Below are positions 59,305 through 62,913 of a DNA stretch of 64,000 bases, one piece after another (positions within the stretch are counted from its first letter, which is position 1; every line of letters begins with the position of its first letter). The stretch is taken from the NCBI GenBank assembly GCA_044356335.1, contig JBIKWL010000005.1, positions 10,946-74,945 on the forward strand. The letters are read 5' to 3'. The position numbers were made by a program, and so were the translations under genes. Origin of the DNA: Candidatus Sericytochromatia bacterium (lineage in GTDB: Bacteria > Cyanobacteriota > Sericytochromatia > UBA7694). The notes under the pieces were generated by a model, which searched no databases, was not told the origin of the DNA, and saw only the letters and a list, made by a program, of their open reading frames with translations.

Positions 59305-59347
59305 GACCTAAAAAAAAAGACCTGGTCTGCAAGATGCAGTTCCAGGT
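59305..59347 (-). terminator. Rho-independent terminator on the - strand, after glycine-zipper gene B2
   Basis: On the - strand the sequence reads gacctgg-N16-ccaggtc followed by T9. Confidence 0.65.
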
Positions 59348-59382
59348 CAGAGGGAGTAATGTAGAGTTAAAAGTGTTTTAGC

Positions 59383-59970
59383 TTAAAAGGAGTCAGTCAG
59401 GGGCTTGGCGAGTTGACCGCCAAGCACGCCACCCACAGCACCAAAGGCCACGGTGGCAATGGTTAAAGGAATACCAGCCAGGCCCAGAGAGCCCAAGGCC
59501 AGATTGCCCAGACCGCCAATGGTGACAGCACCGAGACCACCCACGGCACCGCCGATGGTGTCTTTCATGACATTGCTCACCGCTGTGCTGCCATCGGTGC
59601 TGCCAGAGGCAATGCCCACGCCGTTGGTCACAACCGAGACACCGGCACTGACCAAAGCCGACAGACCAGCGCCTTTGAGACCCGTCAATGCGGTGTTTTT
59701 CAGACCTGTCATAAAGGTCTTGCCGAAAATAGATTTGATATTCTGACCCATCTGATTGCCCAGTTTGTGGGCGGCAAAACCGCCTCCGGCGGCATTGGCC
59801 ACCATTGAGCCAATTGAAGAGAAATCGCCACCAAAGGCACCGCCGCCTGTATCGCCGGTCGAAGGGGTATAAGGTGAATAAGGGGTGTAGTTGCTGGTTT
59901 GTACGCTGGGAGCAGTCGCCGTATAGGGATTGGATCCAATGCCTGTTAAACTCATTTTGATAAACTCCAT
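59383..59970 (-). CDS. Gly/Ala-rich glycine-zipper protein, B-type paralog (B2)
   Basis: C-terminal GGLGAVTIGGLGNLALGSLGLAGIPLTIATVAFGAVGG is shared with B1. Confidence 0.6.
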   Translation of the reverse strand: MEFIKMSLTGIGSNPYTATAPSVQTSNYTPYSPYTPSTGDTGGGAFGGDFSSIGSMVANAAGGGFAAHKLGNQMGQNIKSIFGKTFMTGLKNTALTGLKGAGLSALVSAGVSVVTNGVGIASGSTDGSTAVSNVMKDTIGGAVGGLGAVTIGGLGNLALGSLGLAGIPLTIATVAFGAVGGVLGGQLAKPLTDSF

Positions 59971-60037
59971 TACTCTTTTAAAATCTTTGTAAAATCTTTG
60001 TAAAATCTTTAAATCCGTTTAGTTCTTGAAACAGAAC

Positions 60038-60766
60038 TTAATAACCGTAAGCAGGCTGTTGGTAATAACCCGCAGGTGCTGCAACAGGATCGGTTCCGCC
60101 AAAAGCTTTGCGCATCGTTCCTGCGAGGTTATCGCGCAGACCACTGGAATTGTAGAGGTAGTTCACACCAACCGAGCCAAGGGCTCCAGCCGCAGCCGCA
60201 GCAACGGTCAGAGGGATACCCGCCAAACCGAAGGAACGCAGAGCCAAGCTGCCCAAACCAGCACTGATACCGGCACCGGCACCGCCGAGCAAACCGCCGA
60301 CAGTATCTGCAGCCACATTGCCACCGGCATCGGCTTTGCTCATTTCTCCGCGGGCAGCGGCTGCGCCGTTTTGCACCCCGGAGATCAAACCGCTGACCAA
60401 ACCGCCAATACCTGCCGATTTGAGGGTGGCCATACCTAAATTTTTGAAGCCTGCGCCCATGCCCTGACTTTTAAAGGACTTAAAGGCATCAGAGACTTGA
60501 TTGTGCATCATGCCGCCGGTGATACCACCAGAGAGAATGCCACTGATCAGATTAAATCCATTACCTGTGGTACTCACAGGATAAACAGAAGGAGGATAAG
60601 GTTGGGTCTGCTGATAGCTATCGCCAGAAAAGACCCCAGCGACCTGATTGATCGCGCCATCTACGGCATATACTGCGGGAACCATAGTATTGACAGCGCC
60701 TTGAACAGCACCAGCTGTATAAACTGCCTGATTAAATCCATTGACCAATCCGTCAACTCCACCCAT
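60038..60766 (-). CDS. Gly/Ala-rich glycine-zipper protein, A-type paralog (A2)
   Basis: N-terminal MGGVDGLVNGFNQ...AVYAVDGAINQVAGVF and the ADAGGNVAADTVGGLL motif are shared with A1. C-terminal tail YYQQPAYGY. Confidence 0.6.
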   Translation of the reverse strand: MGGVDGLVNGFNQAVYTAGAVQGAVNTMVPAVYAVDGAINQVAGVFSGDSYQQTQPYPPSVYPVSTTGNGFNLISGILSGGITGGMMHNQVSDAFKSFKSQGMGAGFKNLGMATLKSAGIGGLVSGLISGVQNGAAAARGEMSKADAGGNVAADTVGGLLGGAGAGISAGLGSLALRSFGLAGIPLTVAAAAAGALGSVGVNYLYNSSGLRDNLAGTMRKAFGGTDPVAAPAGYYQQPAYGY

Positions 60767-61089
60767 GGTTCAATCTCCTTTGATCTTCTGTTAACCGTAA
60801 ATTTGTTTTCTTAGTTTAAATATCGCCAAGCCCCCCAAGATCTTGTGAGAGCAAGGTTAAGAAGCTATTAATCTTAGAGAAAGTTTTGAATAATAAATTT
60901 TAAGGCAGGATTAAGTCCAAACAATAGAAGCAAATTATTAGAACCAAAACAAAACAAAAACAAGGCTACCATTTGCATTGACACCTTTCCCCAAGAAAAT
61001 TAAATCCCTGTCATTGAAAGATTAACAAAGCATGAAGGCGCTGTTTTGGGCCGGAATAACCCGATCTTAACCCCGTTAAAAAGCAGCCA

Positions 61090-61119
61090 ATAAAAAAGCA
61101 GACACACAATGTGGTCTGC
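61090..61119 (-). terminator. Rho-independent terminator on the - strand, after glycine-zipper gene B1
   Basis: On the - strand gcagac-N10-gtctgc followed by TTTTTTATT. Confidence 0.5.
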
Positions 61120-61152
61120 CGAGGGAGTATGAGATGAGTCAGAAATTTGAAT

Positions 61153-61818
61153 TTAAGAAGGGCTCTGGCCTTCCGCTTTGGGGGTTTGGGCTTCTGTTTC
61201 GGGATTGCGGCCTTTGTGCAATAAATGCCCCATCAAAGTACCGCCAGCAGCTCCCAATGCCACTGTGGCAATGGTTAAAGGCAAGCCGACAACCCCAAAC
61301 GAAGCCAGGGCCAGATTGCCAGCTCCGCCGATGGTCACAGCCCCCAGACCGCCAATGGTTCCGGTCATGGTATCTGAAAGCACATTGCTGATCGCAGTCT
61401 GAGAATCGGTTTTGCCTTTGACCACCCCCAGGCCGTTGGCAATCGCGGAAGTACCGGCACTGATCAAACCGGCCAGGCCAGCCCCACGAATGCCTGACAT
61501 CGCCAAACCTTTGGCATTGACCAATGCGCTTTCGGTTCCAGCAGGCCCCCCATTTTTGAGTCCGAGATAGACTTCTTTCATCTGGGTGCCCATCTGAGCG
61601 CCATAGCGATAGGTGGCAAAGCCGCTGCCTGCCGCATGCCCCGCCAAACGGCCCGTCAAAGCCAGGGTATCGGCATTGAGAAAGCTTGAGGCTTTGGTGG
61701 TTTCTGCTGATTCACCAGAAGAGACCGGCAAAGTAACAGAAGCGCCCGAAGACTTCGGAACTTCATAACCTGCGCGGGTGAGAATCGAGCTGACAGCCGT
61801 TAATTCCATAATTCCCAT
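61153..61818 (-). CDS. Gly/Ala-rich glycine-zipper protein, B-type paralog (B1)
   Basis: TIGGLGAVTIGGAGNLALASFGVVGLPLTIATVALGAAGG is shared with B2. Confidence 0.6.
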   Translation of the reverse strand: MGIMELTAVSSILTRAGYEVPKSSGASVTLPVSSGESAETTKASSFLNADTLALTGRLAGHAAGSGFATYRYGAQMGTQMKEVYLGLKNGGPAGTESALVNAKGLAMSGIRGAGLAGLISAGTSAIANGLGVVKGKTDSQTAISNVLSDTMTGTIGGLGAVTIGGAGNLALASFGVVGLPLTIATVALGAAGGTLMGHLLHKGRNPETEAQTPKAEGQSPS

Positions 61819-61917
61819 TCATTCTTTTCAATCATTTTGCAAACAAGACAGCGTTAGCTCTCTAACGCTGTCTCTTCAGCAAGCTCACCTGCGCAAAGTC
61901 AGGTGCATCTTGCTCAC

Positions 61918-62736
61918 TTATCTGTAATAACCGTTTTGGGGAGCATAGCCCTGGTTGTAGTTATAGCCCTGGTTATAACCTTGATTGTAGTTATAGCCGC
62001 CTTGGTTATAACCCTGGTTGTAGCCATAATTGCTGCTGCCGCCGCCAAACATACTTCTGAGGCTATTGGCCAAGCCATCGCGGGCCCCACTCATTTGATA
62101 GAGCAAGCTGGCGCCTGTGGCACCCACTGCACCAGCTACCGCAGCACCGATCGTCAGACCGATACCTGCCGCACCCATGCCACTCAGAGCCAGACCGGCT
62201 GCACCAGCCGCAATGCCTCCAGTTGCACCGGCAAGGAGACCGCCGACAGTGTCAGCAGCGATATTGCCGCCTGCATCAGCAGACGATTGCATACCTTTGG
62301 AAACCAAGGAGATATTTTTAGCCGCAGAAATAACACCTGTCACAGCGGCACCAATGCCACCAGCTTTGAGAGAAGACATACCCAAAGCTTTGAATCCAGC
62401 ACCGGTTTGACCGGCTTTAATGGTTTTGATTGCCTCAGAAGCAGACTGATGGGTCATGGCACCCGCGACACCGCCGGCCAGCATATTGCCAATAATGCCC
62501 ACTTTGCCATCTTCCAAAGAACCCACTGGCATGGGCGGGTAAACAGGGTAAGCAGGATAAGGATTATAAGGGGTGTACTGATCGCCTGTAAAAACAGAAG
62601 CGACTTGGTTGATTGCACCGTCTACAGCGTAAACGGCAGGGGCCAGCGCATCAGCTGCACCCTGGATTGCTCCCACGGTCTGAGTAACCTGGTTGAGGCC
62701 ATTGATAAATCCGGCAATTCCGTCGAGTCCACCCAT
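61918..62736 (-). CDS. Gly/Ala-rich glycine-zipper protein, A-type paralog (A1), with a C-terminal (NQGY)n tail
   Basis: The start is proposed at the internal Met (MGGLDGIAGFINGLNQ), which aligns with the N-terminus of A2. The listed ORF extends 30 codons further upstream. Confidence 0.55.
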   Translation of the reverse strand: MGGLDGIAGFINGLNQVTQTVGAIQGAADALAPAVYAVDGAINQVASVFTGDQYTPYNPYPAYPVYPPMPVGSLEDGKVGIIGNMLAGGVAGAMTHQSASEAIKTIKAGQTGAGFKALGMSSLKAGGIGAAVTGVISAAKNISLVSKGMQSSADAGGNIAADTVGGLLAGATGGIAAGAAGLALSGMGAAGIGLTIGAAVAGAVGATGASLLYQMSGARDGLANSLRSMFGGGSSNYGYNQGYNQGGYNYNQGYNQGYNYNQGYAPQNGYYR

Positions 62737-62913
62737 TTTTTTGTCTCCTTGATCTGAGGTGTAAGTTCTGCGTGTTACTGCGTACTGTACATATCCGCGA
62801 TCAAGATTAATATCTTGTGTGCACAAGATTAAGGGACGGTTAATGCTTGGAGAAACTTAGGGTAAAGATCTTAAAGGTTAAGTTAACGTGGCGTAATTGA
62901 ATACTTAAATGAG

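Follow-up and report, generated by a model that had tools for sequence, protein, structure and literature searches.

Conserved pairs of paralogous glycine-zipper genes in Sericytochromatia: a five-gene array and its possible role in the membrane

What kind of system is encoded by five adjacent genes of the same orientation whose products are rich in glycine, free of cysteine and arranged as repeated A-then-B pairs? The question is raised by a 64,000-nucleotide stretch of DNA (hereafter the window) from Candidatus Sericytochromatia bacterium (assembly GCA_044356335.1, contig JBIKWL010000005.1), which carries the genes A1, B1, A2, B2 and C. An earlier reading of the letters alone (the original prediction) had proposed a duplicated two-gene operon of the sort known from two-peptide bacteriocins and binary pore-formers. 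Here we show that the pairing of A with B is of ancient origin and subject to strong purifying selection. The family is new, being absent from curated libraries and nearly confined to one uncultured class, and it is of a familiar kind, that of small helical membrane proteins with glycine zippers whose genes occur as paired paralogs. The reading that we favour, to which we give an even chance, is that A, B and C are resident cytoplasmic-membrane proteins, that A and B are paralogous subunits packing as hetero-oligomers, and that C and the solo paralogs are variants of them.

Five paralogs with a common C-terminal domain

The open reading frames (ORFs) bore out the predicted gene order, coordinates and spacer lengths. 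All five were present on the minus strand in the order A1-B1-A2-B2-C, and are listed here with the start sites that we prefer:

A1: 61918-62736, minus strand, 272 amino acids (aa), ATG start at 62736
B1: 61153-61809, minus strand, 218 aa when translated from the ATG at 61809, within an ORF that reaches to 61818
A2: 60038-60766, minus strand, 242 aa, C-terminus ...YGY
B2: 59383-59955, minus strand, 190 aa when translated from the ATG at 59955, within an ORF that reaches to 59970
C: 58399-59193, minus strand, 264 aa, with orthologs P0018 and P0019

The spacers measure 99 bp between A1 and B1 and 67 bp between A2 and B2 (108 and 82 bp from the revised B starts), 386 bp between B1 and A2, and 189 bp between B2 and C.

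A1 and A2 share 52% identity (E 7e-60), and B1 and B2 share 49% identity over 130 aa (E 1e-31). A2 is also related to B2 (47% identity over the C-terminal 111 aa, E 8e-18), and C aligns over the same C-terminal region as the A and B proteins. The array therefore consists of five paralogs of one family, with three subtypes. The kinship within each pair of copies agrees with the predicted duplication of two genes; the mutual paralogy of A, B and C had been missed.

The shared domain spans ∼120 aa at the C-terminus, lacks cysteine and is rich in Gly, Ala and Ser. All five proteins (190-272 aa) are devoid of Cys and contain 17-20% glycine and 11-17% alanine, with 8-15 GxxxG motifs and 19-32 small-xxx-small-xxx-small motifs each. 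Invariant or near-invariant residues within the domain are an S, an N, a G, the motif N-x3-D-T-xx-G and a T. A1 is built of a conserved N-terminal helix, a P/Y-rich linker, the four-helix glycine-zipper domain (residues ∼96-219) and an N/Q/G/Y-repeat tail, the last encoded by a 30-bp tandem repeat of 2.5 copies at 61945-62023. In B1 an S/T-rich N-terminus precedes the C-terminal glycine-zipper domain, and C joins the common domain to its own distinct N-terminal region with the EIEWAKKLDKKMEYGYVP motif. The A and B subfamilies are distinct: the former has a specific N-terminal helix and a YGY tail, and the latter a specific MxLTAVSS N-terminus.

The tails of the A proteins vary. Most A-type proteins (A2 of the window; P0003-P0017, P0105, P0118, P0139 and P0148) finish in Y-G-Y after a Y/Q/P/N-rich tail, unlike A1 of the window, which ends in ...NGYYR. 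Among close relatives the length of A1 ranges from 267 to 272 aa.

The start sites of three genes were revised or confirmed by homologs. The longest ORF of A1 extends to a TTG at 62826, which was rejected as a start; the conserved promoter motif described below falls within the extension. We take the ATG at 62736 to be the real start, because it is preceded by an AAGGAGA Shine-Dalgarno sequence, matches MGG(L/I/V)DG, the N-terminus of all homologs, and leaves that motif outside the gene. For B1, homologs beginning with MELT/MQLT/MTLT-AVSS indicate the start at 61809 (MELTAVSS...). For B2, homolog N-termini indicate 59955 (MSLTGIG...), and its orthologs have 189-190 aa. Three ORFs lying opposite A1, A2 and B2 (61903-62757, 284 aa; 60026-60439; 59453-59746; all on the plus strand) were discarded as separate genes: they look conserved in other loci because of Gly/Ala codon composition and the conservation of the sense genes.

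To which known family does this domain belong? No family in Pfam, NCBIfam, PADLOC or PHROGs was found for the five window proteins, PHROGs returning only tail or tape-measure noise (E 0.08-0.16). A Pfam search of 66 family members likewise gave no family and only scattered single matches, among them a match to HlyE in 1 of the 66 that is not significant (E 0.008). The Pfam glycine-zipper families Gly-zipper_Omp, Gly-zipper_YMGG, Rick_17kDa_Anti and Transgly_assoc were not matched at E≤1 by the five proteins or the 66 members. In a profile search of PDB the sole match was Tim22 at E 0.29, and no match to the Tim17/Tim22/Tim23 (PRAT) family, by sequence or by profile, was significant.

The family is also narrowly distributed. 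A2 had only 19 relatives at E≤0.001 in a collection of 5.8 billion proteins. With a profile of the domain, a word-indexed search found 81 proteins, and an exhaustive search of 1.84 billion representatives found 233 clusters at 50% identity. In the latter search the domain lay at or near the C-terminus in all 150 of the matches listed. Most domain-bearing proteins have 180-300 aa, and a few have 420-735 aa. The named cluster members come from Sericytochromatia or 'Cyanobacteria bacterium UBA8530', and in a genome scan 13 of 14 loci lay in metagenome-assembled genomes (MAGs) of Sericytochromatia or Blackallbacteria. Only two sources deviate, a 1.2-kb contig of a 'Bacteroidota' MAG and an 'Obscuribacterales' contig of 5 kb, and both may reflect errors of binning or wrongly labelled bins. 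The window belongs to the core chromosome of a Candidatus Sericytochromatia (Blackallbacteria) genome, with the housekeeping genes for EF-G, EF-Tu, SecY, GroEL and UvrC as neighbours. Solo family members (P0098, P0100) occur elsewhere in the same genomes, where a CitMHS transporter gene adjoins them.

The long members form a group of their own (422-735 aa; P0139, P0148, P0165, P0178, P0181, P0190, P0202, P0136, P0206 and P0211). A Pfam search of these ten proteins found nothing; their N-terminal regions contain, for example, helical 'FRMLHAKxKxGLxNPxxQxAL' repeats with Ala/Lys-rich stretches. In some of them, duplicated 'DLQWATxLExKVxxGYxPT' motifs resemble the N-terminus of C.

The A-then-B order and the transcription units

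Does the A-to-B arrangement extend beyond the window? Because conserved adjacency, on which the original prediction had staked the pairing, was found in most non-redundant loci of other genomes, with L008 and L012 as exceptions, the A-B pairing stands. Twice in the window, and in L020, L009, L010, L013, L014, L016, L017, L015/L001-3, L011, L023 and L024, the gene directly after A is a B; in the last two this order is kept at only 34-35% identity to the A proteins of the window. Outside the window's clade, A and B are separated by 7-31 nt in most genomes. The gene orders are as follows:

L004, L006 and L007 (close relatives): as in the window, i.e., Crp-like regulator, lipoprotein, A1, B1, A2, B2, C, beta-propeller
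L005 (proteins 97-99% identical) and L020 (72-85%): A1-B2'-B1-A2-B2-C
L013: A1-B2-like-B1
CAWCRG, JACYMC and CAYFGW genomes: the two modules on different contigs

All five genes are kept in the 4 of 4 close relatives (L004-L007) and in L020. A separate A1-B1(-like) module is found in L013, L014 and L017 (and L016), and a separate A2 module, B-A2-B(-C) or B-B-A2, in L009, L010, L012 and L015, with the form B-A2-B-C in L009 and L010. In a neighbour-joining tree of the domain, A, B and C formed separate clades, and A1 formed an orthologous group across five genomes; therefore, the A/B split and the A1/A2 split are older than the divergence of these genera. Judged from these sequence comparisons, the duplication is ancient, and the two modules have come to lie side by side only in the window's lineage. 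What remains of the predicted duplicated operon is the paired unit, as distinct from random amplification of paralogs; the duplication is not a recent tandem event.

The rates of synonymous (dS) and nonsynonymous (dN) substitution were then compared. Against L007, dS was 0.38-0.66 and dN/dS 0.017-0.045 for all five genes (A1 0.023, B1 0.045, A2 0.036, B2 0.017 and C 0.022). Against L020, dN/dS was 0.10-0.21 for the four genes for which it could be estimated. These low ratios indicate that they are real genes under strong constraint.

The copy number of B varies between loci. In L005 (6348-6920), L020 (2373-2954) and L013 (8806-9372), A1 and B1 are separated by an additional B2-type gene, which is missing in the window's lineage; the extra B of L005 is ∼99% identical to B2 of the window. 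In L001/L015 (a contig of GCA_964342365.1), a run of N at ∼5460-5560 masks part of the upstream B gene, and there are two near-identical B copies, consistent with an assembly problem at a recent duplicate.

Are the A-to-B pairs transcribed as units? The signals found on the minus strand are given here in the direction of transcription:

62865-62872, minus strand: perfect AAGATCTT palindrome, farther upstream of A1, amid repeated TTAAC/CTTAA boxes
62792-62817, minus strand: unit 1 motif, CAAGATATTAAT, 22-nt spacing, GATATG (-10-like); 56-81 nt upstream of the A1 ATG
61845-61916, minus strand: hairpin 1 (61876-61916) and hairpin 2 (61845-61874) of the A1-B1 spacer
61092-61129, minus strand: B1 3′ end, TACTCCCTC (61121-61129), hairpin (61097-61120) and U6 run
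60819-60845, minus strand: unit 2 motif, CAAGATCTT, 21-nt spacing, GATATT; 53-79 nt upstream of the A2 ATG
59974-60010, minus strand: 11-bp tandem repeat of 3.5 copies, AAAGATTTTAC, located between A2 and B2; the corresponding spacer of L007 lacks it
59310-59358, minus strand: B2 3′ end, TACTCCCTC (59350-59358), hairpin (59319-59348) and U9 run
59217-59242, minus strand: unit 3 motif, CAAGATCTTAAC, 22-nt spacing, GATAAC; upstream of C

The motif common to the three units, CAAGATCTTAA followed at a spacing of 21-22 nt by a GATAAT-like box, is present before A1, A2 and C and not before B1 or B2. Upstream regions from several genera, aligned by eye, share an architecture of repeated CTTAA(C/T) boxes, then CAAGA(T/G)(C/A)TTAA(C/T), then GATA(A/T)N at 21-22 nt from the start of the CAAGA motif. 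Besides the window, the motif was found in L004-L007, L009-L011, L013 and L020, and it lies 65-78 nt upstream of the A2 orthologs in L004, L005, L007, L009 and L010. The pattern CAAGANNTT-N13-GATA occurs twice in the window (0.03 expected) and has 14 matches in 24 other loci, all of them on the coding strand just upstream of A1, A2, C or a first B; none of the 14 precedes a downstream B. The 8-bp palindrome AAGATCTT occurs six times in the window (1.4 expected), three of these in the long spacers upstream of A1, A2 and C. The motif is unlike a sigma-70 -35 box, and may be an operator or activator site or an alternative-sigma promoter. The adjacent Crp-family gene would be an obvious candidate for its regulator.

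At the other end of the units, the hairpin and U9 run after B2 (59310-59348) fold with -18.3 kcal/mol (z -3.1, 0 of 200 shuffles), and the hairpin and U6 run after B1 (61092-61120) with -12.8 kcal/mol (z -1.5). L005 and L007 carry exactly the same sequence at the B1 3′ end. In the distant L009 and L010, a hairpin with a differing stem and a T-run stand in the same place after the last B, and since the position is kept with different stems, these terminators represent more than chance. A simple terminator and promoter scan listed neither the B1 nor the B2 terminator and no real promoter sites, and folding detected no terminator after C. Since the motif precedes first genes only and terminators close B1 and B2, the arrangement supports three predicted transcription units, A1-B1, A2-B2 and C. 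Conserved adjacency, the motif before A only and terminators after the last B are consistent with the A-to-B operons that had been proposed, the strong hairpin structure between A1 and B1 being a reservation.

The accompanying claim that terminators follow the B genes only fared less well. It agrees with the hairpins and U-runs after B1 and B2, and is at odds with strong hairpins in the A1-B1 spacer, whose structure is the most stable of the region (-37.1 kcal/mol, z -4.4). In L004-L007, hairpin 1 is conserved without covariation, these relatives being too similar to inform on it. Hairpin 2 has a perfect 13-bp stem followed by UGUUUGC, without a proper U-run, and is not conserved in L005 or L007.

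The 3′ untranslated regions (UTRs) share a further element. TACTCCCTC lies directly 5′ of the terminator stem in both B 3′ UTRs and is found only at these two places in the window (0.17 expected). Motifs of this type recur in the 3′ UTRs of L009, L010 and L015, and in L009 and L010 the equivalent motif, ATTACTCCCT, stands with a different hairpin and T-run. The CU-rich motif (A)TTACTCCCT(C) is located directly 5′ of the post-B terminator hairpin for B1 and B2 of the window and in L009, L010 and L015/L002; in further B 3′ UTRs (L009, L012, L015), the CU-rich TGTCCTCGCC is part of a hairpin. The element resembles an anti-Shine-Dalgarno sequence and may be a regulatory RNA derived from the 3′ UTR or a stability element. 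A search of the spacers against Rfam returned nothing.

Possible roles at the membrane

To what structure does the domain fold? An AlphaFold2 model of A2, built from a 66-sequence alignment, had a mean predicted local distance difference test (pLDDT) score of 67, and of 70-84 over the domain (medium confidence). The model predicts four long helices (71-101, 103-138, 144-178 and 184-208) that are bundled together and densely set with small-residue repeats of the GxxxG type, plus a short fifth helix. The hydropathy of the last helix is 1.7-2.0, and that of the other helices 1.0-1.6; the last helix is clearly transmembrane-like. No signal peptide was found in the A, B and C proteins.

In the reading that we favour, A, B and C would insert into the cytoplasmic membrane of the producing cell itself with both termini in the cytoplasm, a topology proposed because there is no signal peptide and an even number (four) of hydrophobic helices at the extreme C-terminus. 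A and B, made from one transcript, would interlock by their glycine zippers to give a hetero-oligomeric assembly in the membrane, perhaps a complex that is channel-like or serves as a membrane scaffold. Further subunits or variants would be supplied by C and the solo paralogs, and the variable N-terminal parts and N/Q/G/Y tails could provide functional or interaction surfaces. One regulator recognising CAAGATCTTAA would switch all units together.

Several results weigh against this proposal. The model of B2 was poor (pLDDT 54) and unusable. Only one helix per protein exceeds the classical transmembrane hydropathy threshold, and the domain may instead be a soluble 'inside-out' bundle that inserts conditionally into membranes, like pore-forming toxins. 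We infer contact between A and B solely from their conserved adjacency, and no significant sequence or structural relative points to a specific activity. The A1-B1 hairpin could terminate part of the transcripts between the two genes. The A genes of L008 and L012 have no downstream B. In the tree, the B copies of any one genome group with each other, a sign of ongoing duplication or gene conversion of the B genes that can be read as simple paralog turnover.

This last point leads to the competing explanation that fares best, although we consider it unlikely: the five genes would be a tandem array of independently acting paralogs of a small lineage-specific membrane or stress protein, and A-B adjacency would reflect duplication history and shared regulation. 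One domain common to all five proteins, solo members elsewhere in the same genomes, variable copy number and order (A1-B2'-B1, B-B-A, B-A-B-C, solitary A), homogenised B copies and a single promoter motif for all units would all be expected from it. It does not readily account for the persistence of the A-to-B order, across very short gaps that hold no promoter, even at the identity levels of L023 and L024 and in two separate orthologous modules, nor for A and B subfamilies that are still distinct in their N-terminal and tail features.

Could A and B together be a toxin? They would then form a two-component membrane-permeabilising toxin (a two-protein bacteriocin, a contact-dependent glycine-zipper toxin resembling CdzC/CdzD, or a binary alpha-pore-former), exported independently of Sec and acting on other cells, and we judge this improbable. 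The absence of cysteine and of a signal peptide, the richness in glycine zippers and the conserved order of paired genes are compatible with such a toxin. So are the confinement of strong hydrophobicity to the last helix, as in soluble-to-membrane toxins, and the C-terminal location of the domain in long proteins with unrelated N-termini (P0136, P0165, P0178). In Caulobacter crescentus there is a precedent for two glycine-zipper proteins acting as a toxin, CdzC and CdzD, which have 84-86 aa and RTX-like leaders and are accompanied by the type I secretion pair cdzAB and the divergent immunity gene cdzI (PMC5380434). The array resembles the Cdz system in its adjacent gene pair and in Gly/Ala-rich products with extended GxxxG zippers and no Sec signal, which are likely to be membrane-active or aggregation-prone. 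It differs from it in the size of the proteins (190-272 aa), in the lack of partner secretion and immunity genes and in being made of conserved core genes. At none of the loci did the cluster or its surroundings contain type I secretion genes, a C39-ABC exporter, a motif for a leader or for cleavage, or a small gene for immunity, and an exporter and an immunity gene are equally absent at L001, L014 and L016; no ABC or membrane fusion protein (MFP) genes adjoin any family locus. The sole C39-like protein is a stand-alone one encoded 10 kb away, and the only divergent small membrane gene (57293-57748) lies in a low-GC insertion that is lacking in relatives. Moreover, the long proteins carry no toxin-trafficking domain, and both modules are kept orthologously across genera on the core chromosome, with conserved synteny, dN/dS of 0.02-0.05 and no presence/absence polymorphism in five related genomes. 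Loci for bacteriocins do not typically show such a pattern.

The other systems with which a toxin could be compared lead to the same assessment. Class IIb two-peptide bacteriocins are peptides of 25-60 aa with leaders of the double-glycine type, accompanied by an immunity gene and a C39-ABC exporter. The array shares with them two genes, here predicted to be co-transcribed, whose products have GxxxG motifs; it differs in protein size, in the absence of a match to a GG-leader family and in N-termini that are conserved as in a mature-looking protein. XaxAB/YaxAB, of the ClyA superfamily, are proteins of ∼340-450 aa with long coiled-coil tails. Binary alpha-pore-forming toxins resemble the array in that neighbouring genes encode two wholly helical proteins, both with a hydrophobic hairpin of helices, but no ClyA/XaxAB- or colicin-like folds were among the fold matches. 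In glycine-zipper depolarising effectors of type VI and type VII secretion systems (Tse4, Ssp6, TelE), the C-terminal glycine zipper is essential for membrane activity; these effectors are delivered via PAAR/VgrG or LXG domains and paired with immunity genes, and no PAAR/VgrG/LXG-type domains or neighbours were found here. With proteins too large, core-gene behaviour and no exporter, leader, immunity gene or toxin fold, the attribution of the array to a two-peptide bacteriocin or binary pore-former is not upheld.

Less probable still is that the domain is a mere C-terminal anchor or oligomerisation module of tail-anchored envelope or intracellular-membrane scaffold proteins that self-associate through low-complexity P/Y/Q/N/G regions: its position at or near the C-terminus in all 150 matches listed, the helical-repeat and Ala/Lys-rich N-terminal regions of long members, the prion-like N/Q/G/Y tails with a conserved terminal YGY and the preponderance of envelope and surface proteins (lipoproteins, beta-propellers, Kelch/TIG) among the neighbours are in its favour, but the most conserved residues (N-x3-DT-xx-G and the invariant S, N and T) are inside the helical domain, which suggests that the domain is more than a passive anchor.

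The closest fold matches, none of them significant, were the Tim17/Tim22/Tim23-NDUFA11-OEP16 group of glycine-zipper membrane proteins with four helices and the transmembrane domain of MgtE; these are small-residue-rich helical bundles that form hetero- or homo-oligomeric channels or complexes. A bolder extension of the proposed membrane assembly, which we rate as the least probable statement made here, is that the family represents a hitherto unseen, Sericytochromatia-specific kind of glycine-zipper membrane machine that assembles itself (as one possibility, from paralogous four-helix subunits into a hetero-oligomeric channel or a lattice that shapes the membrane), joined into a regulon through CAAGATCTTAA and the CU-rich 3′-UTR elements, or else an exporter-independent two-component membrane toxin without an immunity gene. 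Sericytochromatia are an uncultured class of close non-photosynthetic relatives of cyanobacteria, whose cell biology is barely known. Because of its 233 clusters, several paralogs per genome, strong purifying selection, conserved promoters and terminators and the absence of a curated homolog, the family is a candidate lineage-defining membrane component. The conserved promoter motif offers a handle for locating the rest of the regulon, and the conserved A-then-B order provides a concrete pair with which complex formation can be addressed.

Neighbouring genes

The cluster is flanked by genes for a Crp-like regulator, lipoproteins, a beta-propeller, a phosphoesterase and a glutathione peroxidase. 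The neighbours of A1-B1 in three genomes encode a PQQ/BamB-like propeller, a 500-aa protein, a Kelch/TIG surface protein and a TLC-HEAT-cNMP protein. None of the conserved neighbours, whether at the A1-B1 flanks or the CitMHS gene beside solo members, is informative on function. A stand-alone Peptidase_C39_2-like protein of 362 aa, not fused to an ABC transporter, is encoded ∼10 kb away (47453-48541, minus strand), and no link between this gene and the cluster was found.

On the minus strand, the genes for a 219-aa lipoprotein (62914-63573) and the Crp-family regulator (63539-64000, running on past the end of the window) overlap by 35 nt. This pair lies directly upstream of A1 in the window and in L020. 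In L014 it is located ∼6 kb from A1-B1, with a regulator that is 79% identical and a lipoprotein that is only 25% identical.

Between C and the beta-propeller gene, a low-GC stretch (0.39; 57293-58381, plus strand) carries two divergent genes, which encode a 151-aa membrane protein (57293-57748; weak match to P13 porin, E 3.7e-4) and a 206-aa lipoprotein. The stretch is absent from L004-L006 and L020, and L007 has a different insert of ∼2.9 kb at the same spot; 57293-58381 is therefore a strain-variable insertion site.

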